NCBI GenBank assembly: GCA_024404245.1
Contig: JAKSQH010000001.1
Location: 35,556-99,555 of the forward strand
DNA length: 64,000 nucleotides
Source of the DNA: Clostridia bacterium
Lineage (GTDB): Bacteria > Bacillota > Clostridia > Christensenellales > Aristaeellaceae
Reading direction: 5' to 3'
Shown here: positions 5,402 through 44,474 of the stretch, in pieces
How the letters are laid out: every line of letters begins with the position of its first letter
Numbering within the stretch: position 1 is the first letter of the stretch
Position numbers and translations under genes: made by a program
Notes under the pieces: generated by a model
Databases searched by the model: none
What the model was told of the DNA's origin: nothing
The model's input: the letters and a program-made list of their open reading frames with translations, nothing else

Positions 5402-6454
5402 TTATTTTATATGCGCCGTAATCGTCATATCCGCGGTTACACCTTCAAGCGTGAATACGTTCGCCGCGGTGTCCGCTGAAACTGTGATTCCGTTGATCAC
5501 CCAATAATCCACTTCACCGGCAGCGGTAACAGTAAAGGACGCGGGCGCCGTAAGCGTAAGCACAGCCGAAGGTTCATCCGCGGAGCCGGCGGCACTCAGC
5601 AGAGCACCTTCCGCGCTGATCGTGACCGTTCCGTCGGAAACAGGCGCGGGTGTTGCCTGCGGTGCTTTGGTTTTCTTGGGTTTCGGCGTCGGTGTGGGTG
5701 TCGGTGCGGGCGTCTGTACACCGGCCGGCAGTTCCATACCTTCAATCATGATAATCAACGGATCGGTTTTCGCCGTGAACGAACCGTTGGTCAATTTGCA
5801 GTAAACGGACCATCCGTTCATTTCCTTCGGAATATCTGTCAATGTGAGCTTTGCTTTGGCGGCGCCGGAAATCGTCAACTTTTTGAAGGTTTTCATCACC
5901 GTCTTCGCGTTATACTCTCTTTTGCTTTTCGGATGAACAAATATCCATTTATATACCTTTGCGTTCTGCGCCTTCACTGTCAGGCTGCATGAACCGCCGT
6001 CCGGCACAACTGGTGACGCAGACAATTTGGTAATTGTCGGTGTAACCGGTTCCGGGGTCGGCGTCGGAATTTCCATACCCTTAATGAAAATCCGCGCCAT
6101 ATCGGATTTCACGGTAAACCCGTCTCCGCCGAGCTTGCAGTAATAGGACCATCCGTTCATGGATTCCGGAACATTCTTCAGCGTAAAGGATTGTTTGTTG
6201 GGGCCGGTGGTCTTGAGTCCCTTGATTGACCTGGCGATTTTTTTACCGGTGATCTCCTTACCGGTTTTCGGATTGACAAAAACCCAGGTCAGTGACTTGT
6301 AATTCCTGGCCTGTACTGTCAGTACACAGCTCTTCCCCGCAACCACAGTAATATCTTCCGGCTGTTGGGAAAAGGAGGGTTTCGCGGCCAGCGCGGTGCC
6401 TCCGCAGCCGACAACAAGCACAAGAATCAGCAACAGGGTTATCATTTTTCTCAT
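5402..6454 (-). CDS. Secreted protein with two Ig-like domains and Pro/Thr linkers
   Basis: Start moved to MRKMITLL (GGAGG RBS). Signal peptide ending ALA; two repeats CxLTVxA...W.FV.PK...MNGWS.YCKL. Confidence 0.75.
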   Translation of the reverse strand: MRKMITLLLILVLVVGCGGTALAAKPSFSQQPEDITVVAGKSCVLTVQARNYKSLTWVFVNPKTGKEITGKKIARSIKGLKTTGPNKQSFTLKNVPESMNGWSYYCKLGGDGFTVKSDMARIFIKGMEIPTPTPEPVTPTITKLSASPVVPDGGSCSLTVKAQNAKVYKWIFVHPKSKREYNAKTVMKTFKKLTISGAAKAKLTLTDIPKEMNGWSVYCKLTNGSFTAKTDPLIIMIEGMELPAGVQTPAPTPTPTPKPKKTKAPQATPAPVSDGTVTISAEGALLSAAGSADEPSAVLTLTAPASFTVTAAGEVDYWVINGITVSADTAANVFTLEGVTADMTITAHIK

Positions 6455-25309: not shown

Positions 25310-27201
25310 TTCCGCTCCGCGCGCCCGCCCCGGATGAAGAACGGGTTGCCTTCGTAATCGGCGGCACAACAATCAGCGGCGGCATGAAAGTTGTGTGCGA
25401 ATACGCGAACGCGCTCCGCGAAGCGGGCGCGTATGTTGTGATGCTCTGCACAGGTCCGTTATCCGGGCAGATGGAATGGTTTCCGGGCCAGAAAGTACCG
25501 GTGATTCCGTTCCGTGAGGCCGCTCGTGACTGGGATACCGTAATCACAACATTCTGGCAGACCAATGAGTTCGCGTCCGGATTGTCAGCGAAACGGCGTG
25601 TCTATCTTGTGCAGTCCGACGAGCGCTGTTTCTATCCGCGCAATCCGTATCTGCGTCTGCGTGTCGCGAAAACGTACCGGCAAAAGAACGTGGAGTATCT
25701 CTGTGTTGCGGCGTGGATGAAAAAATGGCTGAAAGAGGAATTCAATCAGAACGCGGAGCTCATTGTCAACGGGATCGATGTGAACGCCTTCGCGTCCGCG
25801 GTCCCGCTCGCGGCGAAAAGCGATCGTCTGCGCGTACTGATTGAAGGCGACGCGAACAGTTCCGTCAAGAACATCGCTTCCGCGCTGGAGATCGTGCGCG
25901 GCACGGATATGGAAATCTGGCGTGTCACACCCGCGGCGGATTCCGCCGCGGAAGAAGCCGACAGGGTTTTCAGTGCCGTTCCCGCCTCTGATATGCCCGG
26001 CATTTACAGGTCCTGTGATATTCTGCTGAAAACAAGCCGCTTTGAAAGTTTCTGTCTGCCGGCACTGGAGATGATGGCCGCCGGCGGTGTTGTGCTCGCG
26101 GCACGGACACCCGGCACGGAGGAACTGATCCGTCACGGCGAAAACGGGTTCCTGTTTGAGCAAAACGATACGGCTGCGGCAGAAAAGTATCTTGACATGC
26201 TGCGTGATCCGGAAATCCGCGAGCGGATCGGCAGACAGGCCGCGGCGTACGCGGCCGGCTGTTCACGTGATGAATCAATCCGGCACGCGTGCTCTTTTTT
26301 GCTGCCCGGGCAGAAATACAAACAGTTTTTTAAAGAAAATACGGAAGCAGGCATCACGGATGAGGAAACACTCCGGCAGGTTTTCCTGAACATGCCGGAA
26401 GCGGAAGGGACCGCCAGAAGAATCCAACTGTGCAACAATGATCTGTTGCGGCGGATCAAGCGCGTCTGCGACGCGAACGGCATTCCCTTTTTTCTGCTGT
26501 GGGGCACATTGCTCGGCAGCGTCCGTCACCGCGGATTTATCCCATGGGATGATGATATTGACATCGGCATGATGCGGCAGGATCTGCTGAAGCTGAAAGA
26601 CATCATCCGGGACGATCCTGTACTCAGGCTTGACATGGCCTACAACTGGGGTCTCGGCGGCATCTGCTGGAAGATCCGCTACCGTCTGTGCGATTCCTTC
26701 TGGGTGGATATCTTCCTGTATGAAACGTTTGAAGACGATCCGTCCGAAGACCGCGCGGCGATGATCCGTGAAGCCTCCGCCCGTTATCAGCACCGGCGTC
26801 TGCATGCCGTGCGGCGGTATTATCATACCCGTAAGCCCTGTCTCGCCACGGTATCCGACCCACGTGTGGACAGGCTCTGCGAGAGCGCGCGGACCCTGCT
26901 CGAAAAGGAACTGCCGTTTCTCGGCCGGGGCGATATGCTGATTCTGAGCCCGGACGCGAACCCGCAGCTCGCGAAGCCTCCCGTTCCTTACAGCACCTTC
27001 TTTCCGCTGCAAAAAAACAGTTCCCCGTTTGAAGGAGAACTGTATGACACAATCCGTGAACCGGATCTCTGGCTGAAATCGCTTTACGGTGATTACATGA
27101 CGCTCCCCGCGGACATCACGCCTAAGCATGAAGCGGAATCAATGTCACGCGCGGAAGAGGACCTGAAAAAACTGGCCGATGCCGGTCTTATGACTTTCTG
27201 A
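25306..27201 (+). CDS. Fusion of GT4-type (GT-B) glycosyltransferase and LicD phosphotransferase
   Basis: N-terminal SGGMKV...ESFCLPALEMMAAG (Ex7E). C-terminal GTLLGSVRHRGFIPWDDDIDIGM, VDIF, YGDYMTLP. Confidence 0.88.
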   Translation: MIPLRAPAPDEERVAFVIGGTTISGGMKVVCEYANALREAGAYVVMLCTGPLSGQMEWFPGQKVPVIPFREAARDWDTVITTFWQTNEFASGLSAKRRVYLVQSDERCFYPRNPYLRLRVAKTYRQKNVEYLCVAAWMKKWLKEEFNQNAELIVNGIDVNAFASAVPLAAKSDRLRVLIEGDANSSVKNIASALEIVRGTDMEIWRVTPAADSAAEEADRVFSAVPASDMPGIYRSCDILLKTSRFESFCLPALEMMAAGGVVLAARTPGTEELIRHGENGFLFEQNDTAAAEKYLDMLRDPEIRERIGRQAAAYAAGCSRDESIRHACSFLLPGQKYKQFFKENTEAGITDEETLRQVFLNMPEAEGTARRIQLCNNDLLRRIKRVCDANGIPFFLLWGTLLGSVRHRGFIPWDDDIDIGMMRQDLLKLKDIIRDDPVLRLDMAYNWGLGGICWKIRYRLCDSFWVDIFLYETFEDDPSEDRAAMIREASARYQHRRLHAVRRYYHTRKPCLATVSDPRVDRLCESARTLLEKELPFLGRGDMLILSPDANPQLAKPPVPYSTFFPLQKNSSPFEGELYDTIREPDLWLKSLYGDYMTLPADITPKHEAESMSRAEEDLKKLADAGLMTF

Positions 27202-28648
27202 CCGTGCTGATGATCCCGGCGATCCGTTTACGGAAGACAACGGCGAGCGCAACCATAACAAGCAGGATTCCGTAGCGTACCGCCGGCATCCCGTACAGGA
27301 ACCCGCCGGTCAGGCTGATCACCGTCATACCGACGCTCATGTACAGAATCTGCTTCATATTGTAGATATCCCTGCCCACCGCGCGGCGCATCACGGCACA
27401 GTCAATCACCGCCTGAACGATGTAGCTGATCAGGGTAGTATATCCCGCTGCGGCGTATCCGTATTTCCGGATAAACACGTAATTCAGCACCAGATTCAGC
27501 ACGGTTGCCGTTACGGAACCCGCCATGACACCGGCGGGTTTTTTATAATAATACAGAATATTCGCGTAGATATAGTACTGCACCTGGAAAAACAGACCGC
27601 CGATAATCGGAGGAATCACGCTTACCGCTTCCATGTAATGCTCATTGGAAACGATGCGGACGACCTCCGGCGCGAACATGATCAGCGCTGTGCAGCATAT
27701 GCCGAACAAAAGCAGAATCGGCCTTGTGAACCTGTCGATCGCCGAAAAATCTTCCGTTTTGCATTTTTCATAGGTATACGGCAGCAGGGACGAGTTGACC
27801 GCGGTCCACACCACCAGCACAACCGCGGCCGTGGTATGCGCCACGCTGTAATATGCCACCGCGGCATCGCCGACCAGATGCTCAATCATCAGCTTGTCCG
27901 AGCCTGACAGCAGATAGGTGGACAGGTAATGCGGAATCAGCGGCAGGTTGAACAGAACTGCCGCTTTCCAGTATTCTGTTTTCACCCGGAAACGGTTGCG
28001 GATGCCCAGATAAAGATGAAAACCGGCATAGATCGCGATCATTGTCAGCTCCATCCCGAAAAGGCGTGGATAGAGCCGTTCACCTTCAGGCGCCGCGCAT
28101 ACCGCGATAATTGAAACCGCTGGCGCCGCGATCGCGAGCAACAGTGAAAAAAAGATCACTGCTTTGTATCTGTACTCGTACCGCTGCCATGTCTGCCACA
28201 GGTTGAACGCCGGCTGCACCAGAAACAGGCCGCACATCAGCAGCACCAGCCGCAGGTCCATCTTCAGCAGATCTTTCAGCACCGGATACAGAAGCAGCAG
28301 AACCGCGGAAAAAGCAAGCGTAATCAGGTTGGACAGAATCAGCATTGAGTAGGTATATCCGTTCCGGTCATCCGGGTGCTCAACCATTCCGTTGTTGAAC
28401 ACACCGTAGGACAGGCAGAACATGGCGATGATTCCCAGCACCTGCACCCATGTCAGAAAGGCGGAAGCCTGTCCGAACTCTTCCGGAGAAAGCATGTTCG
28501 TAAAAACGGGCGTGGTGATATATCCCATGCCCAGCGAAACCACACCGGCAAAGAAATAGGCCGCCGATGCTTTCACACCCGCGGACAGTCCCCGCCATTT
28601 CTCCAGCAGCTTCAAGGCGAATCCCCTTTCTCCGGCCTTACCGGGCAC
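27188..28648 (-). CDS. wzx: Wzx-type polysaccharide flippase
   Basis: 12-14 TM MOP-family pattern; ITTPVFT..LSPEEFG, SDKLMI, YYSVA, YGYAAAGYTT. Confidence 0.85.
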   Translation of the reverse strand: MPGKAGERGFALKLLEKWRGLSAGVKASAAYFFAGVVSLGMGYITTPVFTNMLSPEEFGQASAFLTWVQVLGIIAMFCLSYGVFNNGMVEHPDDRNGYTYSMLILSNLITLAFSAVLLLLYPVLKDLLKMDLRLVLLMCGLFLVQPAFNLWQTWQRYEYRYKAVIFFSLLLAIAAPAVSIIAVCAAPEGERLYPRLFGMELTMIAIYAGFHLYLGIRNRFRVKTEYWKAAVLFNLPLIPHYLSTYLLSGSDKLMIEHLVGDAAVAYYSVAHTTAAVVLVVWTAVNSSLLPYTYEKCKTEDFSAIDRFTRPILLLFGICCTALIMFAPEVVRIVSNEHYMEAVSVIPPIIGGLFFQVQYYIYANILYYYKKPAGVMAGSVTATVLNLVLNYVFIRKYGYAAAGYTTLISYIVQAVIDCAVMRRAVGRDIYNMKQILYMSVGMTVISLTGGFLYGMPAVRYGILLVMVALAVVFRKRIAGIISTVRKS

Positions 28649-29396
28649 AGAATTTGCGTTTCAGGAAGCACCATATCTTCACGGGCCAGTTCTGCTTTTC
28701 GGTAAACACCACCCGGCATTCCGAAAACGCGATTTTTTCAGCTTCCAGCCACACATCCGTCAACCGTTCGGCCACATAGCCGAAAACACGCCTGTCCTTC
28801 GGGCTGTATCCGGAAATATCCAGCCGTTTTTCCAGTTCAAAAAGTACCGGAAACAGAAATTCATTATATCTGCAAAAATACGCCTTCGTCATCAGGAACA
28901 TGTTGAACCGATGTCCGCTGCGACGGTCCATTACCCGGTCAAACGCGGCTGTATACCGTTCACCGTACATCCCGTCAAGGATCTCCCTTGTCAGGATCAG
29001 ATCCTCTTCATGATGCGCGTGCACATATTGTGAGCGGTTGGTTTCCACCCAGTAATGCCGTTTCTTCGGCAGAATAACGGAGGATTTCGCCAGAAGCGTT
29101 TCCAGCGCTTTTCCGTTCAGAATCCGCTCATTTTTCGGCTTTATGAGTGTACGCGACGCGAAATAGCGTCTGTAATGGCACAGCCCGTACGCGTCCGCTT
29201 CGCGGTTTTTCCACAGCCAGTACTGCACGGTCAGTTCACAGAAGCCCGGGTTTTTTTCAGAAATACTGTCGCCCTCATTGTCTGCCGTGATTCCGAAGCT
29301 TTCTTTCCCTTCAGCGCCTGCCTGCACCGGCAGATATACCGGATCCGAAGGGAATGTATACGGTTTATGTGACGCCACAGCCACAATCAGGTTCAT
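28638..29396 (-). CDS. DUF4422-family glycosyltransferase (putative galactofuranosyltransferase)
   Basis: VASHK, DSISEKNPGFCELT, GLCHYRRYF, NMF, RVFGYVAERL; adjacent to glf. Confidence 0.85.
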   Translation of the reverse strand: MNLIVAVASHKPYTFPSDPVYLPVQAGAEGKESFGITADNEGDSISEKNPGFCELTVQYWLWKNREADAYGLCHYRRYFASRTLIKPKNERILNGKALETLLAKSSVILPKKRHYWVETNRSQYVHAHHEEDLILTREILDGMYGERYTAAFDRVMDRRSGHRFNMFLMTKAYFCRYNEFLFPVLFELEKRLDISGYSPKDRRVFGYVAERLTDVWLEAEKIAFSECRVVFTEKQNWPVKIWCFLKRKFCAR

Positions 29397-29409
29397 CTTC
29401 ATCCCTCCG

Positions 29410-30522
29410 TCAAAGCGTCTCTGCCGCATTCAGCGCCTCCGCGACAACCCGGTCCATATCCAGATACCGGTATGTTCCGAGACGGCCCCCGAACAAAACC
29501 TTCTCTTCCTTTTCCGCCAGTTCACGGTACCGGTTGTATAATGCCCCGTTTTCCTCATTGTTCACAGGATAGTACGGTTCATCACCCGGTTTCCATTCAT
29601 AACTGTACTCGCGGCTGATCACAGTGCCGTGTACGGGGTTTCCCGCGGCATCCAGGCCGAAGTTGAACCATTTGTGTTCAATAATCCGGGTCCACGGCGT
29701 TTCACGGTCCGTATAGTTCACAACGGCATTCCCCTGATAGTCATCCGTGTCCGGGTATTCCCGCTCAAAGCGTACCGTACGGTACTGCAGCGGCCCGTAC
29801 CGGTAACCGTAAAACGCGTCAACCGGTCCCGTATAGATCACACGTTCTGTCATGGCGTCATACAGCTCACGGTCCCGCAGATAATCCGTTCCGGTTCTGA
29901 CTTCCGCGCCCGCCAGCATCCGCTCTGTCATCGCGGTATAACCGTCCTTCGGAATACCCTGATAAGCGGCATCGAAATAATTGCTGTCCCTGTTGAAGCG
30001 CACCGGCAGCCTGCGAATAATAAACGCCGGCAGATCCCTGCATTCCCGCCCCCACTGCTTTTCCGTATATCCTTTGACCAGTTTTTCATAGATATCCGTT
30101 CCGACCAGTGAAATCGCCTGTTCTTCAAGGTTCCGCGGTTCACCGCCAAGGTAATCCGCCCGTTGCTTCTCTATGATTGCTTTAGCCTCATCCGGCGTTG
30201 ATACATTCCACAGTTCGGAGAAGGTGCGCATCGTGAACGGAAGCGAGTAAATCTCACCGTGATAGTTGGCTTTCGGTGAATTGACAAAGCTGTTGAATTC
30301 CGCGAAACGGTTCACATAATCCCAGACACGCGCGTCATTTGTATGAAAGATATGCGCTCCGTACACATGAACCTGTATTCCGTGATCGTTTTCAGTGTAA
30401 ATGTTGCCGCCGACATGACCGCGTTTTTCCAGCACAAGCACACGCATCCCGCGCTCAAGCAACTGCTGCGCGACAACCGCTCCGTACAGACCGGCTCCGA
30501 CAATCACGGCATCATATGTCAT
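29410..30522 (-). CDS. glf: UDP-galactopyranose mutase
   Basis: VGAGLYG, YGAHIFHT, GYTEKQWG, EPYYP, GRLGTYRYLDM. Confidence 0.97.
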   Translation of the reverse strand: MTYDAVIVGAGLYGAVVAQQLLERGMRVLVLEKRGHVGGNIYTENDHGIQVHVYGAHIFHTNDARVWDYVNRFAEFNSFVNSPKANYHGEIYSLPFTMRTFSELWNVSTPDEAKAIIEKQRADYLGGEPRNLEEQAISLVGTDIYEKLVKGYTEKQWGRECRDLPAFIIRRLPVRFNRDSNYFDAAYQGIPKDGYTAMTERMLAGAEVRTGTDYLRDRELYDAMTERVIYTGPVDAFYGYRYGPLQYRTVRFEREYPDTDDYQGNAVVNYTDRETPWTRIIEHKWFNFGLDAAGNPVHGTVISREYSYEWKPGDEPYYPVNNEENGALYNRYRELAEKEEKVLFGGRLGTYRYLDMDRVVAEALNAAETL

Positions 30523-31939
30523 CGTCCGTCCTGCCTTTCGCGTGTTTACCGTCCCGGATCACGACCTCGGAATTGATCATTCCGCCGAACACGGTGGACC
30601 ACATGATTTTCAGATCCAGCTCCGGCGACCAGTCGTCTATGTATTCAAGATCCAGCTTCACACGCTCCGCGATGCTTGTATCGCCGCGATAGCCGTTCAC
30701 CTGGGCAAGCCCGGTGATGCCCGGCCGTACCTGCTGGCGTACCAGATAACGCGGAATTTCATTTTTGAAGTGGTCAATATGATACGGAATTTCAGGCCGG
30801 GGACCGACAACACTCATATCGCCGCGAAGCACATTGAAAAACTGCGGCAGCTCATCCAGGCTGAATTTGCGGATAAAGCTTCCGAACTTTGTTTTCCGCG
30901 GGTCTCCGTCCGTGCTCCAGCCGGTTGATTCCGAGTCCGTTACCCGCATACTGCGGAATTTGTACATATTGAACAGTTTTTTGTTGCGGCCCATCCGTTC
31001 CTGTTTGAAAATGACAGGGCCCGGACTGGAAATTTTGACTCCCGCCGCGATCAGCAGCATCAACGGACTGAGTACAACCAGCGCGAATACCGAAATCAGG
31101 ATATCCGTAAGGCGTTTCAGAAACGCGTTTGCCGGGTTATCCAGCGGTGTGGCTCTCAGGTCCACCAGACGCGTGTTGCCGATCACACCGATTGTCGGAT
31201 GTTTCGGATAATAATCATTAAAGAAAGGAATCATCTCCACATAGGTTCCTTCCTTGTCCGCCGCGTCCAGAATCATCGGCAGGAACTTCGTTTCATGCGG
31301 TTCCAGCGCTACCACAATACCGTCATACAGCCCGCTTTCAAGAATTTCCGCCAGCTGCTCGTAACTGCCTAGGCATTCTCCCAGTTCCGGGCGGACAGAA
31401 GCGCTCACATAGCCGTCCACACGGATACCGCAGAAGGTATTCTCCTCCACATCCTTCAGGTATCCCGCCGCGTAGGATCCGTTGCCTACAACAATAAAAT
31501 GCTTGAGATTCCTGCCGTTCGACCGGAGAGCATGCAAAAACGCGTGCAGAACAATGTGTTTCAGGCTGATCAGCGCGGAACACAACAGCCAGCCGATCGC
31601 AATCGCCAGACGGGACATATCAATCTGGCGGAACACGAACATTGCCGCCATCAGGATCAAAGCGCAGATGCCGCACGCCATAAAAATACGCACAGTATTG
31701 CTTCCCGCCATTTTGAGCCTCTGCGGCGCGTAAAGCCGGAAAAGGAACAGAACACCCGTATTCACCGCGGCAAAAAGCGCGGCATAGGCGGTCATCTCAC
31801 CGGTTGTCAGATCCAGATTCAATATGCCGTCCAGAACAACATAACGGATATTCCACGCGATAACACCCGAGATCCATAGAATGATAAAGTCGGAGATCAC
31901 ATTGATCACATTCAGGATCGTCTGGTTCTTTTTGATCAC
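30512..31939 (-). CDS. Undecaprenyl-phosphate sugar-1-phosphate transferase (WcaJ/CpsE type)
   Basis: Four N-terminal TM helices, CoA-binding-like middle, C-terminal KFRSM, SLDELPQFFNVLRGDMSVVGPRP, PGITGLAQV. Confidence 0.93.
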   Translation of the reverse strand: MIKKNQTILNVINVISDFIILWISGVIAWNIRYVVLDGILNLDLTTGEMTAYAALFAAVNTGVLFLFRLYAPQRLKMAGSNTVRIFMACGICALILMAAMFVFRQIDMSRLAIAIGWLLCSALISLKHIVLHAFLHALRSNGRNLKHFIVVGNGSYAAGYLKDVEENTFCGIRVDGYVSASVRPELGECLGSYEQLAEILESGLYDGIVVALEPHETKFLPMILDAADKEGTYVEMIPFFNDYYPKHPTIGVIGNTRLVDLRATPLDNPANAFLKRLTDILISVFALVVLSPLMLLIAAGVKISSPGPVIFKQERMGRNKKLFNMYKFRSMRVTDSESTGWSTDGDPRKTKFGSFIRKFSLDELPQFFNVLRGDMSVVGPRPEIPYHIDHFKNEIPRYLVRQQVRPGITGLAQVNGYRGDTSIAERVKLDLEYIDDWSPELDLKIMWSTVFGGMINSEVVIRDGKHAKGRTDDDI

Positions 31940-31988
31940 AGTATCCCCTCCCGTTCCGGATGTTTGTCAATTGAAGCACTGCCGGTAA

Positions 31989-32930
31989 TCACTTTTTTTC
32001 TTTCAGAAGCTCGGGCTTTTTCTGCCGTACAATACGCAGTGCGGCTTTCAGCGCGACTTCCTCATCGTCGCTTTCAAGCAACGCTTTCAGCTTTTTGACC
32101 TCGGCTTCCTGTTTCTTTGCTTTCTCCCGTTCGACTCTTAGCGCGTGTTCTTCCGCAAGCGCCGTAATTTCTTCCGCGTTTTCCGGAAGTCTCTTTGTCT
32201 GCAGGAACTCCTCATACGCGTCACAGAGTTCCTGGACATTATCCCCGAAAGCGATCTGCCTGCCGTGATCCAGCCACAGAATCTTATTGCACATTTCCCG
32301 CACCTGGCTGATGGAATGTGATACCAGAATGCCGGTCACACCGTGCGACAGAATCTCCTTCATCTTGTCACCGCTCTTTTTGCGGAACGCGCCGTCACCG
32401 ACAGACAGCACCTCGTCCAGAATCATGATATCCGGATCGACAAGGCACGCGATTGAAAACGCGAGTCGGCTTTTCATACCGGAGGACAGCTGCTTGAACG
32501 GCCGGTTCTGAAAATCCTCCAGTTCCGCGAAAGCGATTATCTTGCCGTACATTTCATCCATAAACGCGCGTGTATATCCCAGAAACGCGCCGCGCAGGTA
32601 TGTGTTTTCCTTTACCGTCAGGTCTCCGTCAAAGCCGGATGCCAGCTCAAGCAATGCCGCGATTGTCCCCTTAACTTTGATTTTTCCCTTAGTGGGGACC
32701 ATAATACCCGCGATTGCTTTCAGCAACGTACTTTTCCCGGCGCCGTTGCCACCGATAATGCCCAGCATATCTCCCTGATCAAGCGAAAATGTGATATCCC
32801 TGTCCGCCCAGAAATTAACCACATGATAATTCCCTTTCAGTTTGCGGACAACATATTCCTTCAGCCCGATATCCTTGAAATCCCCTGTGATATACCGTAT
32901 GGAAACACCTTTTGCGTCAATAACTTTCAT
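31989..32930 (-). CDS. wzt: Polysaccharide/teichoic acid ABC exporter ATPase (Wzt/TagH)
   Basis: GGNGAGKST, LSSGMKSRLAF, ILDEVLSVGD, VSH. Confidence 0.92.
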   Translation of the reverse strand: MKVIDAKGVSIRYITGDFKDIGLKEYVVRKLKGNYHVVNFWADRDITFSLDQGDMLGIIGGNGAGKSTLLKAIAGIMVPTKGKIKVKGTIAALLELASGFDGDLTVKENTYLRGAFLGYTRAFMDEMYGKIIAFAELEDFQNRPFKQLSSGMKSRLAFSIACLVDPDIMILDEVLSVGDGAFRKKSGDKMKEILSHGVTGILVSHSISQVREMCNKILWLDHGRQIAFGDNVQELCDAYEEFLQTKRLPENAEEITALAEEHALRVEREKAKKQEAEVKKLKALLESDDEEVALKAALRIVRQKKPELLKEKK

Positions 32931-32944
32931 TATCCCGGACCTCG

Positions 32945-33724
32945 TTACACATAGTACAGGAATCTGTGGTTCTGTTTTTTATAAATCAGCGCGCCGATAC
33001 CGAGCGCGATCAGCGCGTACAGCAGCAGCAGACCGTGATACATCAGACTCGGCACCGTACCGTTGATCACAATCACACGTACATATTTGATATTCACATA
33101 CACCGGATTAAGCAGGAACAGCCGTTGCACCTGTTCCGGATAAGCCGAAACATCATAGAAAATCGCCGACATATACAACAGCAACCGCACAAAGATATCA
33201 TACAGATATTTCGTATCCTGAAAAAACACATGCATCGCCGACAGAATCATCCCAAAGCCGATATTGAACACCGTCAGCGTACAGATCGGATAGAATATCA
33301 TCAGGCAGCTCGGTTTGAAAGTAACCCCGTCAATCGCCGCGAAAACAAAGAAAACAACCATTGACAGGAGGAAATTGAAGACCGAGGATACATTCTTGCT
33401 GAGCAAAAACAGATATTTCGGTACATTAATCTTTGTGAAAATCGCCGAATTCCCGCGAAGCGCGGTCATTCCGCCGCTCGTGGACTCCTTGAAAAAATTG
33501 AACATCAGGTTTCCCGCGAACAGGTAGGTTGTGTAAAACGGCATATCTCTGCCGAAGAACCGGGTAAAAATCAGCCTCATTACCAGCAGAATCAGTAAGG
33601 GAGAAAGAATGCTCCACCCCATGCCGAGTACAGTCCGCTTGTATTTCTGTTTAAAATCGCGTTTTACCAGTTCCTCGAACAGGAAACGGTTTGCCTTCAG
33701 TTTCCTGATTTTTTTCTTAAGCAT
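32945..33724 (-). CDS. wzm: Polysaccharide ABC exporter permease (Wzm/TagG)
   Basis: RDFKQKYKRTVLG..WSILSPL, LLNPV; six TM helices. Confidence 0.92.
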   Translation of the reverse strand: MLKKKIRKLKANRFLFEELVKRDFKQKYKRTVLGMGWSILSPLLILLVMRLIFTRFFGRDMPFYTTYLFAGNLMFNFFKESTSGGMTALRGNSAIFTKINVPKYLFLLSKNVSSVFNFLLSMVVFFVFAAIDGVTFKPSCLMIFYPICTLTVFNIGFGMILSAMHVFFQDTKYLYDIFVRLLLYMSAIFYDVSAYPEQVQRLFLLNPVYVNIKYVRVIVINGTVPSLMYHGLLLLYALIALGIGALIYKKQNHRFLYYV

Positions 33725-33793
33725 CAGCTTTTCTCCATCCGGGTTCCGCACGGTGTACCGTCCGGTATGCATCGTGCCGCCCGCGCGTATTTT

Positions 33794-37111: not shown

Positions 37112-37140
37112 TTGACAGCAGTGCCGGCAAAGGATATAAT
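37112..37140 (+). promoter_or_regulatory. Consensus sigma-A promoter of the licD operon
   Basis: Perfect TTGACA-17 nt-TATAAT. Confidence 0.85.
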
Positions 37141-37190
37141 AAATTGTTTACTTATACAGATTTGCGGAAACTGCACGGCATGGAGGCAAA

Positions 37191-38105
37191 ATGTTAAGAA
37201 CATTCAACGCGATGAAGCGGCAGGTTCCCGCCGGAGCGCAGGAGCTCGATGACCGGCAGATAGCCTCTCTGCGGCAATGCCTCGTCGGAATGCTGAAAGA
37301 CATCGCCAGTTTTTGCAGCAGTCACGGTATCTCCTTCGCGCTGTGCGGCGGATCGGCTTTGGGCGCGGTCCGGGAGCACGGAATGATCCCTTGGGATGAC
37401 GATATTGATATCTGTATGCCCAGAGCCGATTATGAACGGTTTGCGCAACTGTTTACAGACGAATGCGGGGAAAAATACGTTCTGCAGCAACCGGGAATAA
37501 CAGCCGGATATCCGTTATCCCTGGCGAAGATCAGAAAGCGCGGAACCGTATATAAAACGCGTGATGATTTTTGCTGCGAGGAATGCGGCGTACCGGTGGA
37601 TCTGTTCATTGTGGAAAACACTTACAACGATCCTGTGCGAAGAACCCTTCACGGCATACTGAGTCTGGCCGCCGGGCTGGCACTCTCATGCAGGAAGTTT
37701 TGCAGGGACCGTTCCCGGTTGCTCAGTTCGGTACCGGATCATAACGCTCTGCGTCTGAAGATTCTTCTGAAGATCGCCGTGGGTGTGCTCCTTGCCCCCT
37801 TAGGAAATACTGACAGTTGGGCCCGCCGTACTGACAGAATCCATTCCATGTGTCATGACCCGACGACACGGTATATTACCACTCCGTCAGGCCGGTATTG
37901 TTTTTTCCGGGAAATGTGGCTTCGGGAGGAATACTGCTCATACCGGAATGAAATTTTCGAAGGAATGGAACTGCCTGTTCCGTTGATGATAGAAAAATAC
38001 TTTGAACGCGGTTACGGAGACTGGCAGACCACCCCGGACACATTTAAGAAAGAAAAACATTATGCCTATCAGTTTATGATGCAGGAGGACTTGCCGAATG
38101 ATTGA
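37191..38105 (+). CDS. LicD family phosphotransferase
   Basis: GGSALGAVREHGMIPWDDDIDICMPRADY, VDLF, YGDWQT. Confidence 0.92.
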   Translation: MLRTFNAMKRQVPAGAQELDDRQIASLRQCLVGMLKDIASFCSSHGISFALCGGSALGAVREHGMIPWDDDIDICMPRADYERFAQLFTDECGEKYVLQQPGITAGYPLSLAKIRKRGTVYKTRDDFCCEECGVPVDLFIVENTYNDPVRRTLHGILSLAAGLALSCRKFCRDRSRLLSSVPDHNALRLKILLKIAVGVLLAPLGNTDSWARRTDRIHSMCHDPTTRYITTPSGRYCFFREMWLREEYCSYRNEIFEGMELPVPLMIEKYFERGYGDWQTTPDTFKKEKHYAYQFMMQEDLPND

Positions 38106-39636
38106 TCTGATCAAATCTTCCATTGTTGAGGCCGGAAAAGCCGTCTGTAAGATCAGCGCCGCAAATACAACGCGCGCCATTCTTACGCAAAAAGACCCGG
38201 ATACGGGAGCGATCGTTTTCCCGTTGCCGAATGTCGCGGCAAACAATCAGACAGCGGATACACTTTTCGCTGTCCTGCCGAAAAACCTCAATGAAACACT
38301 CTCGAAATTCACGCTGCCCGATTTCAGGCTGCACGCGGCGCTCCACAAGGCAATACCGCAATTTGACGCAATCGTTACGTGTCATGTGCCGGCGGCCGTT
38401 AATTTTGTAGCTACCGGAAAGGAGATCCCCGTATATACGCGTTATCACGCGGAAAACTTTCCGGGGCCGGTCCGGTGTACAAAGCCGCTTGCACTGAAAG
38501 ACGGCTCCGGTTATGAAAAAGCACTGACAGACGCGGTCCTTGAAGCCGTTTCAAAATGTGACACCGGTAATCCCGGTGCTTTGCTGATCAGGAATTTCGG
38601 CGTTTGCGTCTGGGATACGGATGCAACCGCTGCAGTCGCCAAGATAAAGCAGCTGAACGCAATTGCCGGGCAGGCATGGCAGATGGAGCTTGATACACAG
38701 GGTGGCATACAGCCGATGGACCCCGCGGAATATGCAGCGCTGTACAATGCCAGAGCAACAAGAAACAACTTTATTGAAAAGGTTGACGGAAAAGTACCCG
38801 GAACAAAGGTCACCGCGGCCGAAGAAAAGTACATCAATCTTGCCCTGCTGGACTACTTCGATAAAGTCTGCCGTGAGAATGACATCAAGTACTCACTGAC
38901 AGGCGGTACCCTTCTCGGCGCGGTCAGGCACAAAGGTCTGATTCCGTGGGATGACGATGTCGATGTATTTCTGTCCCGACCCGAGTTTGAAAAGCTCCGT
39001 GACGCTTTCCCGGACGGCGGGCGTTATGTTTATGTCGACCGTGTCAAAGAGCCCGGCTACCCGTATGTGTTCGGCCGGCTGATTGATACGGATACCATCA
39101 TTACCAAATCACCGAACACCCTGAGCTTCGGGAAAGGGCTTTTTGTGGATGTCTGTGTGGTGGACGGTCTTCCGAAGAGCAAGCTGGCACGTGATATACA
39201 CATGCTCCGTATGCGGATTCTCTTCCGTTGCAGAAGAGCCACAATTCATTCAAACAAGAGCAAGTCTTACGCCAATAAGGGGCCGCTTGTACTGTTCGCC
39301 AAGAAAGTCATCAACAAGCTGACAACCGCCGAATACTGGAATAAAAAGATTGAAAAGCTGATGCAGAAGTATCCGTGGGATTCCTCTGAATATGTCGGCA
39401 ACTTCACTTCCGCCTACGGGAAGCGTGAAATGCTTCACAGAAGCGGTTTTGATACCTATACCACGCTGGAATTCGAAGGAAAGGAATACATGGTTTTCGG
39501 CGGATATGAAGAGTATCTGACAAACATTTACAGGGATTATATGGAACTCCCGCCCGTCAGGAAACGCGTCGGGCATCATCCGAATACTGCCTATTGGGTA
39601 GACCGCACACAGCAGAAGGAGGAAACAAAGCAATGA
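38098..39636 (+). CDS. Fusion of a degenerate AraD-like class II aldolase/epimerase domain and a LicD domain
   Basis: N-terminal about 220 aa aligns with AraD (H..LH..IP...AIVTCH, YHAENFPGPVRCTK, PGALLIRNFG..VW). C-terminal GGTLLGAVRHKGLIPWDDDVDV. Confidence 0.82.
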   Translation: MIDLIKSSIVEAGKAVCKISAANTTRAILTQKDPDTGAIVFPLPNVAANNQTADTLFAVLPKNLNETLSKFTLPDFRLHAALHKAIPQFDAIVTCHVPAAVNFVATGKEIPVYTRYHAENFPGPVRCTKPLALKDGSGYEKALTDAVLEAVSKCDTGNPGALLIRNFGVCVWDTDATAAVAKIKQLNAIAGQAWQMELDTQGGIQPMDPAEYAALYNARATRNNFIEKVDGKVPGTKVTAAEEKYINLALLDYFDKVCRENDIKYSLTGGTLLGAVRHKGLIPWDDDVDVFLSRPEFEKLRDAFPDGGRYVYVDRVKEPGYPYVFGRLIDTDTIITKSPNTLSFGKGLFVDVCVVDGLPKSKLARDIHMLRMRILFRCRRATIHSNKSKSYANKGPLVLFAKKVINKLTTAEYWNKKIEKLMQKYPWDSSEYVGNFTSAYGKREMLHRSGFDTYTTLEFEGKEYMVFGGYEEYLTNIYRDYMELPPVRKRVGHHPNTAYWVDRTQQKEETKQ

Positions 39637-40343
39637 ATATCGCACTGATCATCGCGGGCGGCATCGGCGCAAGAATGCACCAGAGCATCCCGAAGCAGTT
39701 TATCAATGTTGAGGATAAGCCGGTAATTGTCTACACCATGCAGGCATTCCAGCATCACCCGGACATTGACGAAATCTATGTGGTGTGCGTTGACGGATGG
39801 CATGATATTCTTCGTGCGTACGCCAAGCAGTTTGAAATCACCAAGCTGAAGGAAATTGTACCGGGCGGTGAAAACGGACAGGGGTCAATCCGTAACGGCG
39901 TATTCGCCATTGAGAGGGATCACGATCGTGATGACCTCGTACTGATTCATGACGCGATCAGACCGATGCTGTCCACGGAAATCATTTCCGACTGTATTGT
40001 AACCGCTCATACATTCGGAAACGCGATCGCGTCCATACCGTGTAACGAAGCGATGCTGATGACAGAAGACGGCAAGACCTCAACCTGCAGCATCGATCGC
40101 GCGACACTGAAGCGTACACAAACCCCGCAGACATTCAGGCTCGGTCAGCTGGCGGATGTTCACAGGGAAGCACTCAATAAAGGCATCACCAACGCGGTTG
40201 CTTCAGCTTCCATGTTTGCCGACATGGGCTATAAACTTTACTTTTCACAGGGATCCGAAAAGAACCTGAAGCTGACAACACCCGATGATCTTGATATATT
40301 CCGTGCTCTGCTGGATTCCAGCAGACCGTCATGGCTGAAGTAA
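39633..40343 (+). CDS. IspD/TarI/AbpA-family cytidylyltransferase
   Basis: IIAGGIGARM...PKQF, IHDAIRP, QTPQ, NLKLTTPDDL; ATGA-coupled to the upstream gene. Confidence 0.92.
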   Translation: MNIALIIAGGIGARMHQSIPKQFINVEDKPVIVYTMQAFQHHPDIDEIYVVCVDGWHDILRAYAKQFEITKLKEIVPGGENGQGSIRNGVFAIERDHDRDDLVLIHDAIRPMLSTEIISDCIVTAHTFGNAIASIPCNEAMLMTEDGKTSTCSIDRATLKRTQTPQTFRLGQLADVHREALNKGITNAVASASMFADMGYKLYFSQGSEKNLKLTTPDDLDIFRALLDSSRPSWLK

Positions 40344-40344
40344 A

Positions 40345-41190
40345 ATGAAAAACTATCTGACAGGTGTTTATGAAAAAGCATTCCCGGAAGAAATTTCAAT
40401 CACCGAAATGCTGACTGAGGCAAGGAATGCCGGGTTTGATTTTTTCGAAATCAATATTGACCGGACAGAGCAAAGAATCAGTCGGGTATATGATCCGCAC
40501 TTTAATGAAACGGTTAAGCATGCCGTTTCGGAAAGCGGACTGCCTGTTCGTTCGCTCGGTCTGAGTGCGCTTGGCACTTACACACTCGGTCACCCGGATA
40601 ACAGCATATCTTCCAGGGGCATGGACATTTTCAGGCATACGGTTGAGTTTGCCGAAGATCTCGGCATCAGGCTGATCCAGATTCCGGGGGCTGATATGCC
40701 GAAATTCGATCCGCGCTCGGAAGCAACACATGAACGGTTTATGGACAATCTCCAAAGTGCCGTATCCTTCGCGTCATCCCGCGGTGTCATGATTGCGCTT
40801 GAAAACATGGAAAACGATTATATGGATACAGCGGAAAAGAGCCGTAAAACAACGGATCTGATCAATTCACCGTATCTTCAGCTGTATCTGGATTCGGGCA
40901 ACATCACAAACGCGCACGCGAATAATATGCCCGCGATTCTGAAGGATCTGGATTTCGCCGCCAACCGTCTGGCTGCCTTCCACTTCAAGGAAGTTACTCC
41001 CGTCCGGTACGGCGGGCTGTTCTACGGTGACGGGTGGGTGAACTTTGAACCGATCGCGAAGAAAGCATACGCGCTCGGAGCACGAAGGTTTACGATGGAA
41101 TACTGGTACACGGGAAATACCGGCTGGCGCGATGATCTGAAAAAGGCCAGGCAGTATTGTGACAAATGGCTGGCCGAAAGTGAGGCGTAA
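40345..41190 (+). CDS. L-ribulose-5-phosphate 3-epimerase-like protein (UlaE/SgbU family)
   Basis: GVYEKA, GFDFFE.NID, GIRLIQ; metal and catalytic positions LENME, LDSGN, FHFKE, MEYW. Confidence 0.82.
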   Translation: MKNYLTGVYEKAFPEEISITEMLTEARNAGFDFFEINIDRTEQRISRVYDPHFNETVKHAVSESGLPVRSLGLSALGTYTLGHPDNSISSRGMDIFRHTVEFAEDLGIRLIQIPGADMPKFDPRSEATHERFMDNLQSAVSFASSRGVMIALENMENDYMDTAEKSRKTTDLINSPYLQLYLDSGNITNAHANNMPAILKDLDFAANRLAAFHFKEVTPVRYGGLFYGDGWVNFEPIAKKAYALGARRFTMEYWYTGNTGWRDDLKKARQYCDKWLAESEA

Positions 41191-41193
41191 ATC

Positions 41194-42252
41194 ATGTCCG
41201 CATTTGACTTTTCCAATGAGATTGAACTGGGCGCGCGTTACCGTCTGGACTGGACAAGGCTTGACGGCAAAACCGTTCTGATCACCGGTGCGACCGGTCT
41301 GGTCGGAAAATACATGATCCGGATTCTGCTGAAGCGCAATGAACTCTTCAACGCCGGCATCAGGATTCTTGCTGTCGGCAGGGATCCGGAAAAATTCCGC
41401 CGCCGTTTCGCGGATGTTACCGGTCTGGAGGCGGTTCGTTTTCTCAAGCAGGATGTTCAGATTCCTTTCACGCTTGATGAGCAGCCTGATTACGTGGTTC
41501 ATATGGCCAGCAATACACACCCCCGTCTTTACGCGAGCGATCCGATCGGTACGGAAATGTCGAATATTCTGGGTACATATCATTTGCTGAACATGATCTC
41601 GGATCTGCCCGGATGCCGTTTCGTTTTTGTTTCCTCCGGTGATGTATACGGAGACAACAGAAGCGGTAAACCCTTCATTGAAGAAACCGACTGCGGATAT
41701 ATCGACTGCAACACATTGCGGGCAGGCTATATCGAAGGCAAGCGTGCGAGTGAAGCACTGTGTAACGCTTATCGCGAAGCAAAAGGCGTGGATTTTGTTA
41801 CAGCGCGTCTTTGCCGGATCTACGGTCCGACTATGCAGACAACAGACAGTAAAGCAATCTCACAGTTTATCATGAAAGCCGTCGCCGCCGAGGATATCGT
41901 ACTCAAGAGCAGCGGACAGCAAACCTTCTCCTATCTTTACATCTTCGACGCGGTTACCGCGCTTCTGACGGTAATGGCCTCGGGTGTGTCCGGGAACGCG
42001 TATAATGTTGCCGACAACAATCAGGCGTTATCCCTGAAGGATCTTGCCGGTCTTCTGGCCGGAATCGGCGGAAAATCGGTTGTCTTTGATCTTCCGGACC
42101 GGCTGGAGTCAAAGGGCGCGTCAACCTTCCAGAACGTATGCCTTGACGCCGCGAAGCTTTACAGCCTTGGTTGGAAATCGGAAGTTCCTTGTAAAGACGG
42201 TCTTCGCTGGACTGTCAGTCAGATCCGGCAATCACAGTACAACCGGGAGTAA
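41194..42252 (+). CDS. Extended SDR (NAD-dependent epimerase/reductase, AbpB-like)
   Basis: ITGATGLVG, HMASNTHP, SSGDVYG, YIEGK (YxxxK), RIYGP. Confidence 0.88.
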   Translation: MSAFDFSNEIELGARYRLDWTRLDGKTVLITGATGLVGKYMIRILLKRNELFNAGIRILAVGRDPEKFRRRFADVTGLEAVRFLKQDVQIPFTLDEQPDYVVHMASNTHPRLYASDPIGTEMSNILGTYHLLNMISDLPGCRFVFVSSGDVYGDNRSGKPFIEETDCGYIDCNTLRAGYIEGKRASEALCNAYREAKGVDFVTARLCRIYGPTMQTTDSKAISQFIMKAVAAEDIVLKSSGQQTFSYLYIFDAVTALLTVMASGVSGNAYNVADNNQALSLKDLAGLLAGIGGKSVVFDLPDRLESKGASTFQNVCLDAAKLYSLGWKSEVPCKDGLRWTVSQIRQSQYNRE

Positions 42253-42257
42253 TTGCT

Positions 42258-43382
42258 ATGAACAACTTTGAAAAACCAAAAGAGACCGTTGCCGGTCTCA
42301 GTAACAGAAGAAACGGGAAAATTGATCTGCTGCGTTTTGTGTTTTCCGTATGTATCGCACTGATGCACTTTGGTACAAGTGTCGGTGACGCGCGTTTATT
42401 CCCGAAAGCGGGTTTATGTGTCGAGTTCTTTTTTCTGGTATCCGGTTATCTGATGGCAAAACACGTTGCAAAAATCATGGATCAACCGTGCGAAAGACTG
42501 GGTTCGGAATCATTCTCATATGTCCGGAAAAAATTTTTCTCAATATGCCCGCAGATCATCATCGCTTTTGTGATCGGGTTTACGGTACGGCATCTGATAT
42601 CAGCTGTTTCACCCGCAACATTCGAAAAACATATTCTGGCAGGCTTCGTTGAATTTCTGAACCTCAAGATGTTCGGATTTGATTTATGGTCCGCTAACGG
42701 TCCCACATGGTATATCTCAGCCATGCTCATAATCATGTTGCTGATCTACCCGTTGCTGAGGAAACGGTTTGATCTGTTCTGTTATGTCATCGCGCCCCTC
42801 ACCGGATTCTTCCTTCTGGGTTTTTTTGAAATGACAGGTACGGATTTGCGTACACCCATGGAAGCCGTAGGAAATACCGTGCTGAAAGGAACACTGCGCG
42901 GACTGATGGAGATCTGCTTCGGCATTATGCTGTATCCGTTGGTTACGGCACTGTCAAAGATCCGGTTCCGTGTCGGTGTCAGATGTATTTTCTCCGTTAT
43001 TGAGTTTCTGTGCTACGCGTTTTATTTCAGATGTCTGCAGGGAACGTTCGATACAGGAAAGACAGATACATACTGTGTGATTATCCTGATAACAGCGGTT
43101 CTTCTTTCGTTTTCACAAACCGGCGTTTTCAGCGTTCTGTTCAACAACAGGCTGTTCAGCTGGCTCGGAAAATTCAGTCTGTCCGTGTATCTCGGGCATC
43201 GTTGCTGGAGCCTGTATATCGCGGCAAAAATGAAAAACGCCGGCTATACCGTCCAGTTGCTGTGGTTCATCATTCTGGCATCTGTTACCGCGTTATTCAT
43301 TCATTTTGTTTCTCAATATCTGAGAAAAAACAAACAAAAGATTTTCAGCACCCTGTCCGGATGGTGCGTCAGGGATGCCTGA
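42258..43382 (+). CDS. Acyltransferase-3 (OafA-like) membrane O-acyltransferase
   Basis: IDLLRF...H, VEFFFLVSGY, TWYIS, LGKFSLSVYLGH. Confidence 0.88.
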   Translation: MNNFEKPKETVAGLSNRRNGKIDLLRFVFSVCIALMHFGTSVGDARLFPKAGLCVEFFFLVSGYLMAKHVAKIMDQPCERLGSESFSYVRKKFFSICPQIIIAFVIGFTVRHLISAVSPATFEKHILAGFVEFLNLKMFGFDLWSANGPTWYISAMLIIMLLIYPLLRKRFDLFCYVIAPLTGFFLLGFFEMTGTDLRTPMEAVGNTVLKGTLRGLMEICFGIMLYPLVTALSKIRFRVGVRCIFSVIEFLCYAFYFRCLQGTFDTGKTDTYCVIILITAVLLSFSQTGVFSVLFNNRLFSWLGKFSLSVYLGHRCWSLYIAAKMKNAGYTVQLLWFIILASVTALFIHFVSQYLRKNKQKIFSTLSGWCVRDA

Positions 43383-43475
43383 CCGTACAGGAAAATCAAG
43401 CTTATTCATGCCGTTCCGTCGCGTTGCACGGAACGGTCTTTTTCTGTCTTCATCTGTGCAGCCGCTCCGGTGATT

Positions 43476-44474
43476 TCAGTTATCCGTGACACGGTTGACC
43501 CTTCCCCATCCGGAAGCGCTCAGTTCCGCCCGGCGTTCGAAATCGCCCGGAGCCTCCGCGCAGGTTGTCTTTGGAAAATACGCCTGGGTGAAACAATGGT
43601 CATTATGATTGCGGAAAAAGAGGCCCAGAGAATCGTCCTCATAAATGTGAAGAATCACACTGCGGCAAAAAGAACCGCGGATATCCTCGAAAGATGAAAC
43701 ATCCACCTGAGGAATATCCTGCCAGTCCACCCACTGAATCTGGGAAAACACCCGGTTCCCGCCCCACACGTAATCTCCGATATGGGAGTGTCCGTAAAGG
43801 TGCAGCCGCACATTCAGCGGCAGGGGTTGCAGCTTGCTCAGAAGATAGGTGTCCCGGTTTCCGCCGGGGAAAGCGCAGTGAGCCGCTGTGATGATATTCG
43901 GTTTTCCGCACTGCTCCATATTCCGCCGTACGGAAGCGAAATATCCGTCCGTGTAGGGATACCTTTCTCCTCCGAAACGCATGCCGTTGTGTGTGGAACA
44001 CCAGCTGTTGTCCCGGGCTATATGATCACAGAAAAAATAGACGGCGTAATTGCCCACATCAACACGGAACCAGGTATCCTCACAGTTTTCCGTTGTATGC
44101 CAGCCGGAATGGGATCGTACCATATCATAAAAAGGCATACAAAAACCGGTCTGACCGTTCCGGAAACAATATTCCGCGTAATCGTAATCATGGTTGCCGG
44201 TAGCATAGCAAAGGGGGATATTCAGGGAGGAAAAGGCTCTTTCCTGCAAATCCGTCATTCGGATCAGCTCCGGCAGATTGCTTGATTCGGTGGAATCACC
44301 GAGATACCAGATCATCTGTGCCGGATTCTTCAGCAGCGCGTAATCCTCCATGCAGATATTCAGGCACTTTTCGGCGTTGGAATACAGCCGTTGCTGCAAA
44401 TCGGAAAACACCCAGATGACATGCCTGGCTTTTTTTGCACAGAGTGAATACAGTTCATCCGCGATTTGTGGCAT
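43476..44474 (-). CDS. Calcineurin-like metallophosphoesterase
   Basis: SDLQ, LGD, GNHD, AH, GHSH motifs in the expected order. Confidence 0.82.
   Translation of the reverse strand: MPQIADELYSLCAKKARHVIWVFSDLQQRLYSNAEKCLNICMEDYALLKNPAQMIWYLGDSTESSNLPELIRMTDLQERAFSSLNIPLCYATGNHDYDYAEYCFRNGQTGFCMPFYDMVRSHSGWHTTENCEDTWFRVDVGNYAVYFFCDHIARDNSWCSTHNGMRFGGERYPYTDGYFASVRRNMEQCGKPNIITAAHCAFPGGNRDTYLLSKLQPLPLNVRLHLYGHSHIGDYVWGGNRVFSQIQWVDWQDIPQVDVSSFEDIRGSFCRSVILHIYEDDSLGLFFRNHNDHCFTQAYFPKTTCAEAPGDFERRAELSASGWGRVNRVTDN

Follow-up and report, generated by a model that had tools for sequence, protein, structure and literature searches.

A UlaE-like epimerase gene set within a surface-glycan operon of a Clostridia bacterium: a three-gene CDP-alditol cassette with a possible L-series product

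In the literature that we searched (most subscription journals lie outside it), the pathways found for alditols activated with cytidine diphosphate (CDP) were all D-series and two-enzyme, and neither an L-series CDP-pentitol pathway nor a ulaE gene in a glycan locus was found. One such pair, AbpA/AbpB, starts from D-xylulose-5-phosphate (D-xylulose-5-P), while UlaE is an L-xylulose-5-P 3-epimerase that works with UlaF/AraD in catabolism. In Campylobacter jejuni HS:5, HS5.17 reduces CDP-6-D-fructose supplied by its IspD-fold partner HS5.18, which takes a ketose phosphate and not an alditol phosphate (PMC10918830). AbpA/AbpB of Streptococcus pneumoniae, and Mnp1/Mnp2 (CDP-D-mannitol), likewise activate and then reduce, and are encoded in capsule loci with LicD-type transferases (PMC10118250, 10.64898/2026.05.22.727167, PMC10918830). 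Here we describe an operon in a stretch of 64,000 nucleotides (nt), hereafter the window, from a Clostridia bacterium (Christensenellales, Aristaeellaceae; GCA_024404245.1, contig JAKSQH010000001.1, positions 35,556 to 99,555), in which a UlaE-like gene lies between those of a cytidylyltransferase and an extended short-chain dehydrogenase/reductase (SDR), downstream of two genes encoding LicD domains. Its features are the following (aa, amino acids; TIM, triose-phosphate isomerase).

37112..37140, plus strand: sigma-70-type promoter, perfect TTGACA-17-TATAAT by consensus match
37191..38105, plus strand: LicD-family phosphotransferase 1, 304 aa (PF04991, E 5e-33), donor unassigned
38098..38760, plus strand: degenerate AraD-like domain (class II aldolase fold), N-terminal part of a 512-aa fusion
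38761..39636, plus strand: LicD domain of the 512-aa AraD-like::LicD fusion (PF04991, E 8e-46)
39633..40343, plus strand: IspD/TarI-fold cytidylyltransferase, 236 aa counted from ATG (PF01128)
40345..41190, plus strand: UlaE-like TIM-barrel 3-epimerase of a cassette-specific clade (AP_endonuc_2)
41194..42252, plus strand: extended SDR of a cassette-specific clade, with Asp150 (PF01370)
42258..43382, plus strand: acyltransferase-3 (Acyl_transf_3, PF01757)
43410..43437, plus strand: terminator-like hairpin followed by a T run

The sequence bears out a six-gene operon. All six open reading frames are present at these coordinates, their domain families follow one another as LicD, Aldolase_II + LicD, IspD, AP_endonuc_2, extended SDR and Acyl_transf_3, their junctions are tight (-8, -4 (ATGA), +1, +3 and +5 nt), and the set runs from the promoter to the terminator-like hairpin. 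The promoter is the only perfect consensus within the window, where chance would give a mean of 0.01, and the 1.98-Mb assembly contains 27 of them in total; at two related loci (L001 and L002) a perfect consensus likewise lies upstream of the first licD. Six coupled genes behind one perfect promoter, as an original prediction made from the DNA alone had described them, are thus confirmed. A 30-kb contig of one public run covers the whole operon stretch, and contigs of one RNA run cover 7/30 bins, which is no evidence on expression. A gene for a calcineurin-like metallophosphoesterase (43476-44474, minus strand) converges on the operon terminator.

With the UlaE-like protein as query we found 26 loci, 7 in genomes and 19 in metagenomes; 23 of them encode proteins 46-66% identical to that of the window, and the other three (L007, L025, L026) are distant and come without the partner genes. 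Together with one locus found through the SDR (L083), the 23 make up a clade set of 24 loci, or 18 distinct ones once near-copies are merged; as kin are not independent, locus counts are given here as descriptions and not as tests. In all 24 fetched clade loci the transferase, ulaE-like and SDR genes are contiguous and in this order, and the conservation of ulaE at related loci, on which the original prediction had staked its case, was therefore observed throughout. Where a host is named, it belongs to the Lachnospiraceae, the Oscillospiraceae, the Erysipelotrichaceae or unclassified Clostridia, whereas the context of L014 is of a Bacteroidales type, its neighbouring Glf clustering at 90% with Bacteroidales proteins. 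LicD-family enzymes use CDP-alcohol donors. The TagF family also uses such donors (PMC7729866), and among the 18 distinct loci LicD is encoded in 13, a TagF-type transferase in six and at least one of the two in 15, the remaining three being contigs of <4 kb.

As a control we used the SDR alone as query against ~1,600 genomes and plasmids, which left 50 loci after the window and three seed genomes had been dropped. No ulaE was present within 1.5 kb in 49 of these loci, all 49 of which have Glu at SDR position 150, and a transferase lies within 1.5 kb of the SDR in 38 of the 49; the sole SDR-found locus with Asp150 also has ulaE (1/50). The UlaE-like protein and the SDR are fused in frame (630 aa) in L017:2281-3819 and L018:699-2591, with araD next in L018. 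We consider it highly probable that the cassette contains a dedicated epimerase step in CDP-alditol synthesis. Three ulaE-less SDR loci of Lachnospiraceae (L065, L070, L073) have two IspD-like genes or a reversed order, and we regard them as further, unassigned CDP-alditol variants. The cassette ulaE was found in 0/56 candidate viral contigs, and on plasmids no cassette ulaE above ~34% identity was found among the matches listed (15 of 35). The 'longest contig' values match for 31/68 clade ulaE genes versus 1/52 others, an indirect hint of linkage; the pairwise-distance correlations between the three cassette proteins are weak (Spearman 0.26-0.44) and are not used as evidence of co-evolution.

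The UlaE-like protein passes the cut-off of the NCBIfam L-ribulose-5-P 3-epimerase model NF009689 (209.5 against 200) and stays below those of NF009688 and TIGR00542. Its structure model (predicted local distance difference test score, pLDDT, 96) is closest to Escherichia coli UlaE (3cqi; template-modelling score 0.90, Z 37.8, root-mean-square deviation 2.0 over 275 residues), with the next neighbours, D-psicose/D-tagatose 3-epimerases among them, at Z ~30; the fold family also includes isomerases and a keto-glucoside epimerase. In the tree, the 67 proteins of the clade fall on a single branch set apart from other UlaE (support 100/99), and all 67 keep the metal ligands and catalytic residues E153, D183, H213 and E252, which presumably correspond to 155/185/211/251 of E. 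coli UlaE. In the loops after beta-strands 2, 3, 4 and 7, however, the clade has been rebuilt: Arg77 is replaced by Gly, Ser or Ala in 67/67 (Arg in 52/52 nearest outsiders and 77/84 family representatives), Arg223 by Gly in 67/67 (Arg in 68/84 representatives), Tyr116 survives in 2/67 versus 76/84 representatives, His76 and Tyr120 are also replaced, and an invariant Arg40 and Lys120 have been gained. We take the phosphate site of UlaE to be formed by loop 1 together with a short helix that carries the Arg77 equivalent; our literature search for this site or for Art22 returned nothing usable. The gene is under purifying selection (dN/dS, the ratio of nonsynonymous to synonymous substitution rates, is 0.13 for one pair). 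Because an unchanged reaction would not need rebuilt loops, the substrate of the clade is likely to differ from that of catabolic UlaE, and the plain UlaE run backwards that was originally proposed does not fit a clade altered throughout. The loss of the capping Arg to Gly, the gene order, the UlaE::SDR fusion and the fact that it is the SDR rather than the transferase that is specialised all point to a CDP-linked ketose as the new substrate.

Cassette SDRs form a single long-stemmed clade (support 100/100; 18 of 57 tree rows). They keep the YxxxK motif, the CDP-binding Arg and the NADP-binding Arg after beta-2 (Arg63, Arg176 and Lys183 in 115/115 cassette-type SDRs, Tyr179 in 114/115), and are likely to be CDP-ketose reductases dependent on NADPH (reduced nicotinamide adenine dinucleotide phosphate). 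The best PDB sequence matches of the window SDR are uridine diphosphate (UDP)-glucuronate decarboxylases (E 4e-34 versus 2e-28 for HS5.17), an identity that we rejected, as the NAD-selecting Asp after beta-2 is replaced by Gly-Arg and Thr-Ser-Glu by Ser-Gly-Asp. In a pentulose 5-phosphate the hydroxyl beside the phosphate-bearing carbon is that on C4, whose configuration decides between D and L and is inverted by AraD. The hydroxyl in this position is bound in HS5.17 by Glu140 (PMC10918830), to which the window SDR can be aligned at ~30% identity. Cassette-type SDRs have Asp150 there (115/115, and 119 of the best 120 database matches), and such a clade-wide change from the Glu of the ulaE-less loci would fit an L-configured substrate.

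The cytidylyltransferase scores below the IspD/TarI NCBIfam cut-offs (172.4 versus 181.3 for TIGR00453, 144.6 versus 166 for NF001183), the 'DT' and 'DD' stretches of IspD are replaced, and congeners have a separate IspD-containing frame of ~390 aa; we therefore rejected a housekeeping IspD. Likely it is a ketose-phosphate:CTP (cytidine triphosphate) transferase of the AbpA/Mnp1/HS5.18 kind. Its tree has no long clade stem comparable to that of the SDR. TarI accepts both D- and L-arabinitol phosphates (10.64898/2026.05.22.727167), which means that the transferase fold can tolerate either series.

The original prediction made the AraD-like domain of the operon the 4-epimerase. This domain keeps 2/13 motif residues, versus 13/13 in intact AraDs, and scores 51 bits against an NCBIfam cut-off of 257. 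Gone are His95, His171 and the phosphate-site residues; we assume that His95/His97/His171 bind Zn, that Asn28/Lys42/Ser44/Ser74/Ser75 form the phosphate site and that Asp120 and Tyr229 also have a role. Judged by these losses the domain is very probably catalytically dead, and the intact araD at C25:21651-22352 (L027:9652-10356) would be needed instead. Seven other degenerate copies that we aligned keep 1-4/13 motif residues and are very probably dead as well. Nevertheless, the reading frames of the degenerate units remain open, and dN/dS between L003 and L004 is 0.15 for the fused and 0.25 for the solo unit; they could plausibly serve without catalysis, for instance by oligomerising LicD. Two tandem degenerate units, one free and one LicD-fused, occur in L003:3695-5961, L004:689-2931 and L008, possibly as a hetero-oligomeric scaffold. 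The single-sequence AlphaFold model of the domain (pLDDT 33.6) was not used, and a search for homologues among long proteins returned a 99% copy only, a search insensitive enough to miss the diverged relatives that exist in our loci.

The host's intact araD has 13/13 motif residues and scores 375 with NF006047 (cut-off 257; the cassette araD of L005 scores 368). It is a solitary gene, with a thymidine-kinase-like gene and tuf on either side, and has the same upstream neighbour in genome G701; no araA was found in the window's source assembly. Inside the cassette, over the 18 distinct loci, araD is intact in four, degenerate in five (besides the copy in the window) and not seen in nine (six well-flanked and three short). 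The intact copies, which occur in Erysipelotrichaceae, are those of L005 and L006 (13/13 motif residues) and, by 97% and 86% identity, L015 and L018; they form a clade of their own and are separated from ulaE by the SDR gene. The AraD tree carries long-branch warnings, and for a shared ancestry of the intact and the dead cassette AraDs the approximately unbiased test gives a value (p-AU) of 0.41, which does not reject it and does not establish it either. AraD was found in 8/8 searchable cassette-bearing genomes (two by score only), against a background of 52/151 in the window's order and 53/151 in Erysipelotrichaceae. In two incomplete assemblies, G704 and G1105, the cassette araD is the only AraD found, and neither araA, fucose isomerase nor a second ulaE was found there.

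It is these intact and degenerate cassette araDs, the presence of AraD in all eight hosts and its sole occurrence within the cassette in G704 and G1105 that suggest an L-series donor, which on balance we think probable and which, among the readings considered, is the best supported, as the original prediction also had it. In the pathway that we propose, L-ribulose-5-P would be made from D-xylulose-5-P by the intact AraD that another part of the genome encodes, and the cytidylyltransferase would join it with CTP to CDP-L-ribulose. Inversion at C3 by the remodelled UlaE-like enzyme would then yield CDP-L-xylulose, whose C2 the SDR would reduce at the expense of NADPH. The outcome would be 1-linked CDP-L-arabinitol or CDP-xylitol, the face of attack not being readable from the sequence; LicD would transfer the resulting pentitol phosphate to the surface glycan. 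Reduction of xylulose does yield xylitol or arabinitol (PMC8707391). We infer the L series, the order of activation and epimerisation, the reduction face and the acceptor, and that an L-series route epimerises the CDP-ketose itself is offered tentatively. More speculative still is the proposal as a whole, namely a first metal-dependent TIM-barrel epimerase of a nucleotide-linked open-chain ketose within a first L-series CDP-pentitol pathway (to L-arabinitol-1-P or a mirror-image xylitol phosphate), carried by gut Bacillota/Bacteroidales as a switchable module with a dead AraD as a selected LicD scaffold.

Several observations weigh against this pathway. Six well-flanked loci show no araD-like gene near the cassette, the host having been checked only for G910; the eight AraD-bearing hosts represent ~5 lineages of incomplete metagenome-assembled genomes, and most members of the window's own family have araD (4/5). 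In other Erysipelotrichaceae loci araD adjoins a catabolic ulaE in 23/29 cases, so that it may have hitch-hiked with ulaE. The argument from Glu to Asp leans on aligning the SDR with HS5.17, a hexitol enzyme of ~30% identity in which several further contacts also differ from those of cassette SDRs. As for a CDP-linked substrate, the clade retains Tyr9-Glu10-Lys11 and Ser74, an ordinary phosphate site could be re-formed by Arg40/Lys120, the role given to Arg77 is that presumed for its UlaE equivalent, and the fusion represents one event, the L017 and L018 contigs being 99.5% identical. Finally, the tree test does not reject a single clade of cassette transferases (p-AU 0.40), and the transferases of L030 and L045 nest among them yet pair with Glu150 SDRs and no epimerase, a placement that fits a D-ketose substrate equally well.

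This last point would be accommodated if the route stayed in the D series, which we think unlikely but by no means far-fetched: D-fructose-6-P (the substrate of Mnp1/HS5.18) or D-xylulose-5-P (that of AbpA) would be activated and inverted at C3 (to the D-psicose or D-ribulose level), giving CDP-allitol, CDP-D-altritol or a D-pentitol, with araD merely accompanying ulaE. D-psicose-6-P is not a central metabolite, so that such a route would indeed need an epimerase; the rebuilt loops indicate a changed substrate, D-psicose/D-tagatose 3-epimerases come next in the fold, araD-ulaE pairs are usual in catabolic loci, and the cassette araD is dead or absent at most loci. A passenger araD is harder to reconcile with intact cassette copies that form their own clade, set apart from ulaE by the SDR, and that are the sole AraD found in two genomes where no catabolic feed was found, while UlaE is clearly the nearest structure (Z 37.8 versus 30) and Asp150 marks a change at the very residue that reads the D/L-defining hydroxyl. 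The same donor as in our L-series pathway would result from the order originally proposed, now with the host AraD, in which free L-ribulose-5-P is epimerised to L-xylulose-5-P before activation and reduction. This order shares all of the AraD evidence and agrees with the passed UlaE subfamily cut-off and with the retained four metal ligands, Tyr9-Glu10-Lys11 and Ser74, but leaves the loss of Arg77, His76, Tyr116 and Arg223 and the gain of Arg40 and Lys120 unexplained; as, moreover, the long clade stem belongs to the SDR rather than the transferase and ulaE's fusion partner is the SDR, we hold it to be rather improbable.

Smaller still is the chance that we give to a different metal-enediolate reaction, such as a keto shift, with the CDP-ketose as substrate, or to a dehydratase or decarboxylase SDR, either of which would lead to a donor that is not a plain alditol. 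The lost Arg223, a fold family holding isomerases and a keto-glucoside epimerase, and the decarboxylases among the SDR's top PDB matches would be in line with such chemistry, whereas the SDR has Gly-Arg after beta-2 as in NADP-binding HS5.17, where the decarboxylase has Asp, has an N-terminal extension, and is partnered by an IspD-fold transferase and by LicD/TagF proteins that take CDP-alcohol donors. The degeneracy of the AraD-like domain, in turn, would be expected if the ulaE and araD-like genes were catabolic leftovers without any role in the glycan. This we regard as very improbable, and we rejected a catabolic reading of the operon, given that ulaE sits between transferase and SDR in 24/24 loci, evolves under purifying selection, tracks one SDR clade and is once fused to the SDR, that the operon has no kinase, permease or ulaD, and that the 12-G frameshift of ulaE in L023 is accompanied by G/C runs in other glycan genes of that locus.

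These runs in L023 measure 12, 8 and 12 and lie at 5592 (ulaE-like), 8398 (acyltransferase) and 10270 (licD), the pattern of phase-variable surface-glycan genes; L024 also has three G runs. In the window's operon, single-base indels at short homopolymer runs of the acyltransferase gene, each different, were seen in three public runs (42428, 42527 and 42821; depths 3, 2 and 14), so that certain strains may have O-acylation turned off, although low-depth indels may be errors. With acyltransferase-3 in 6/18 distinct loci and a Bacteroidales-type context in one relative, the acceptor need not be the O-acylated wall polymer originally envisaged, and the acyltransferase is best taken as an accessory O-acylation candidate. 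Arrays of two to four acyltransferase-3 paralogues stand behind the cassette in L008:9527-14332 and L003:9384-11740. Both LicD proteins of the operon score over the PF04991 cut-off and have the WDDD motif. LicD 1 is 59% identical to proteins of L001/L002 and 24% to the second LicD; the LicD domain of the fusion (85% to L001, 56-60% to L003/L004/L011) is likely to be the alditol-phosphate transferase for the cassette product.

The operon forms the end of a long glycan region that also holds rml genes and a phosphoenolpyruvate (PEP) mutase, and that includes the following assembly genes (ABC, ATP-binding cassette).

27188..33772, minus strand: glycan assembly genes for an ABC-2 permease, ABC ATPase, priming sugar transferase, Glf, DUF4422 protein and flippase

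The absence of a transporter noted in the original prediction is true of the operon itself; 3-10 kb upstream, on the opposite strand, a polysaccharide ABC exporter is encoded together with the priming transferase, Glf and flippase, and as the same families lie immediately next to the cassette in L001 and L003, the assembly genes likely serve the same surface glycan. Within the region, a nucleotidyltransferase-cytidylyltransferase-PEP mutase fusion (14281-16287, minus strand), which passes TIGR02320, suggests phosphonate decoration and offers an alternative donor source for one of the window's LicD proteins, and a 631-aa protein that joins a GT4-type glycosyltransferase to a third LicD-like domain (25306-27201, plus strand) faces the minus-strand glycan genes. 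The ulaE clade was not found in the 36 congeners searched, as expected of a variable surface-glycan module; the source genome is 65% complete.

The three-enzyme module is well supported, and its product is a prediction from sequence. The cassette would add a third, co-specialised enzyme to the two-enzyme logic of CDP-alditol synthesis and predicts a donor of new stereochemistry. Asp150 in the SDR and, in the epimerase, Arg40/Lys120 together with the loss of Arg77/Arg223 provide markers for such loci, which could prevent their mis-annotation as ascorbate or arabinose catabolism, and three small soluble enzymes would open enzymatic access to rare CDP-pentitols. Why dead AraD domains are repeatedly retained under purifying selection is a separate question. 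L-arabinitol phosphate itself occurs in a Hafnia alvei O-antigen.

Among the closest described systems is HS5.18/HS5.17 (CDP-6-D-glucitol; PDB 8v4g/8v4h), with which the cassette shares an IspD-fold transferase and an extended SDR with an N-terminal extension. A PF01128 transferase with a PF01370 extended SDR in a glycan locus, the combination used as a search criterion for such pathways (PMC10918830), is what the cassette contains, and the homologue lists in the supplements of that paper could include cassette members. Thr108, Arg176, Tyr179, Lys183 and Arg63 of the cassette SDR are Thr98, Arg164, Tyr167, Lys171 and Arg56 of HS5.17, whereas Met139-Glu140 has become Gly-Asp, Gln196 Arg and Arg233 Phe, and the cassette has an epimerase gene between transferase and SDR that the HS:5 pathway lacks. 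AbpA/AbpB and Mnp1/Mnp2, compared here by description, are two-gene systems that use central D-ketose phosphates, unlike the three-gene cassette; the AbpAB product is CDP-D-arabinitol (10.64898/2026.05.22.727167, PMC10118250), of which the proposed 1-linked CDP-L-arabinitol would be the mirror image. TarI/TarJ (CDP-ribitol) and IspD (CDP-methylerythritol) share the transferase fold, but the cassette transferase lies under their NCBIfam cut-offs and its partner is an extended SDR. With E. coli UlaE (PDB 3cqh-3cqk), finally, the UlaE-like protein has the fold and the metal ligands in common, and differs from it in its biosynthetic context, its separate clade and the replacement of the His-Arg-Arg helix, Tyr116, Tyr120 and Arg223.

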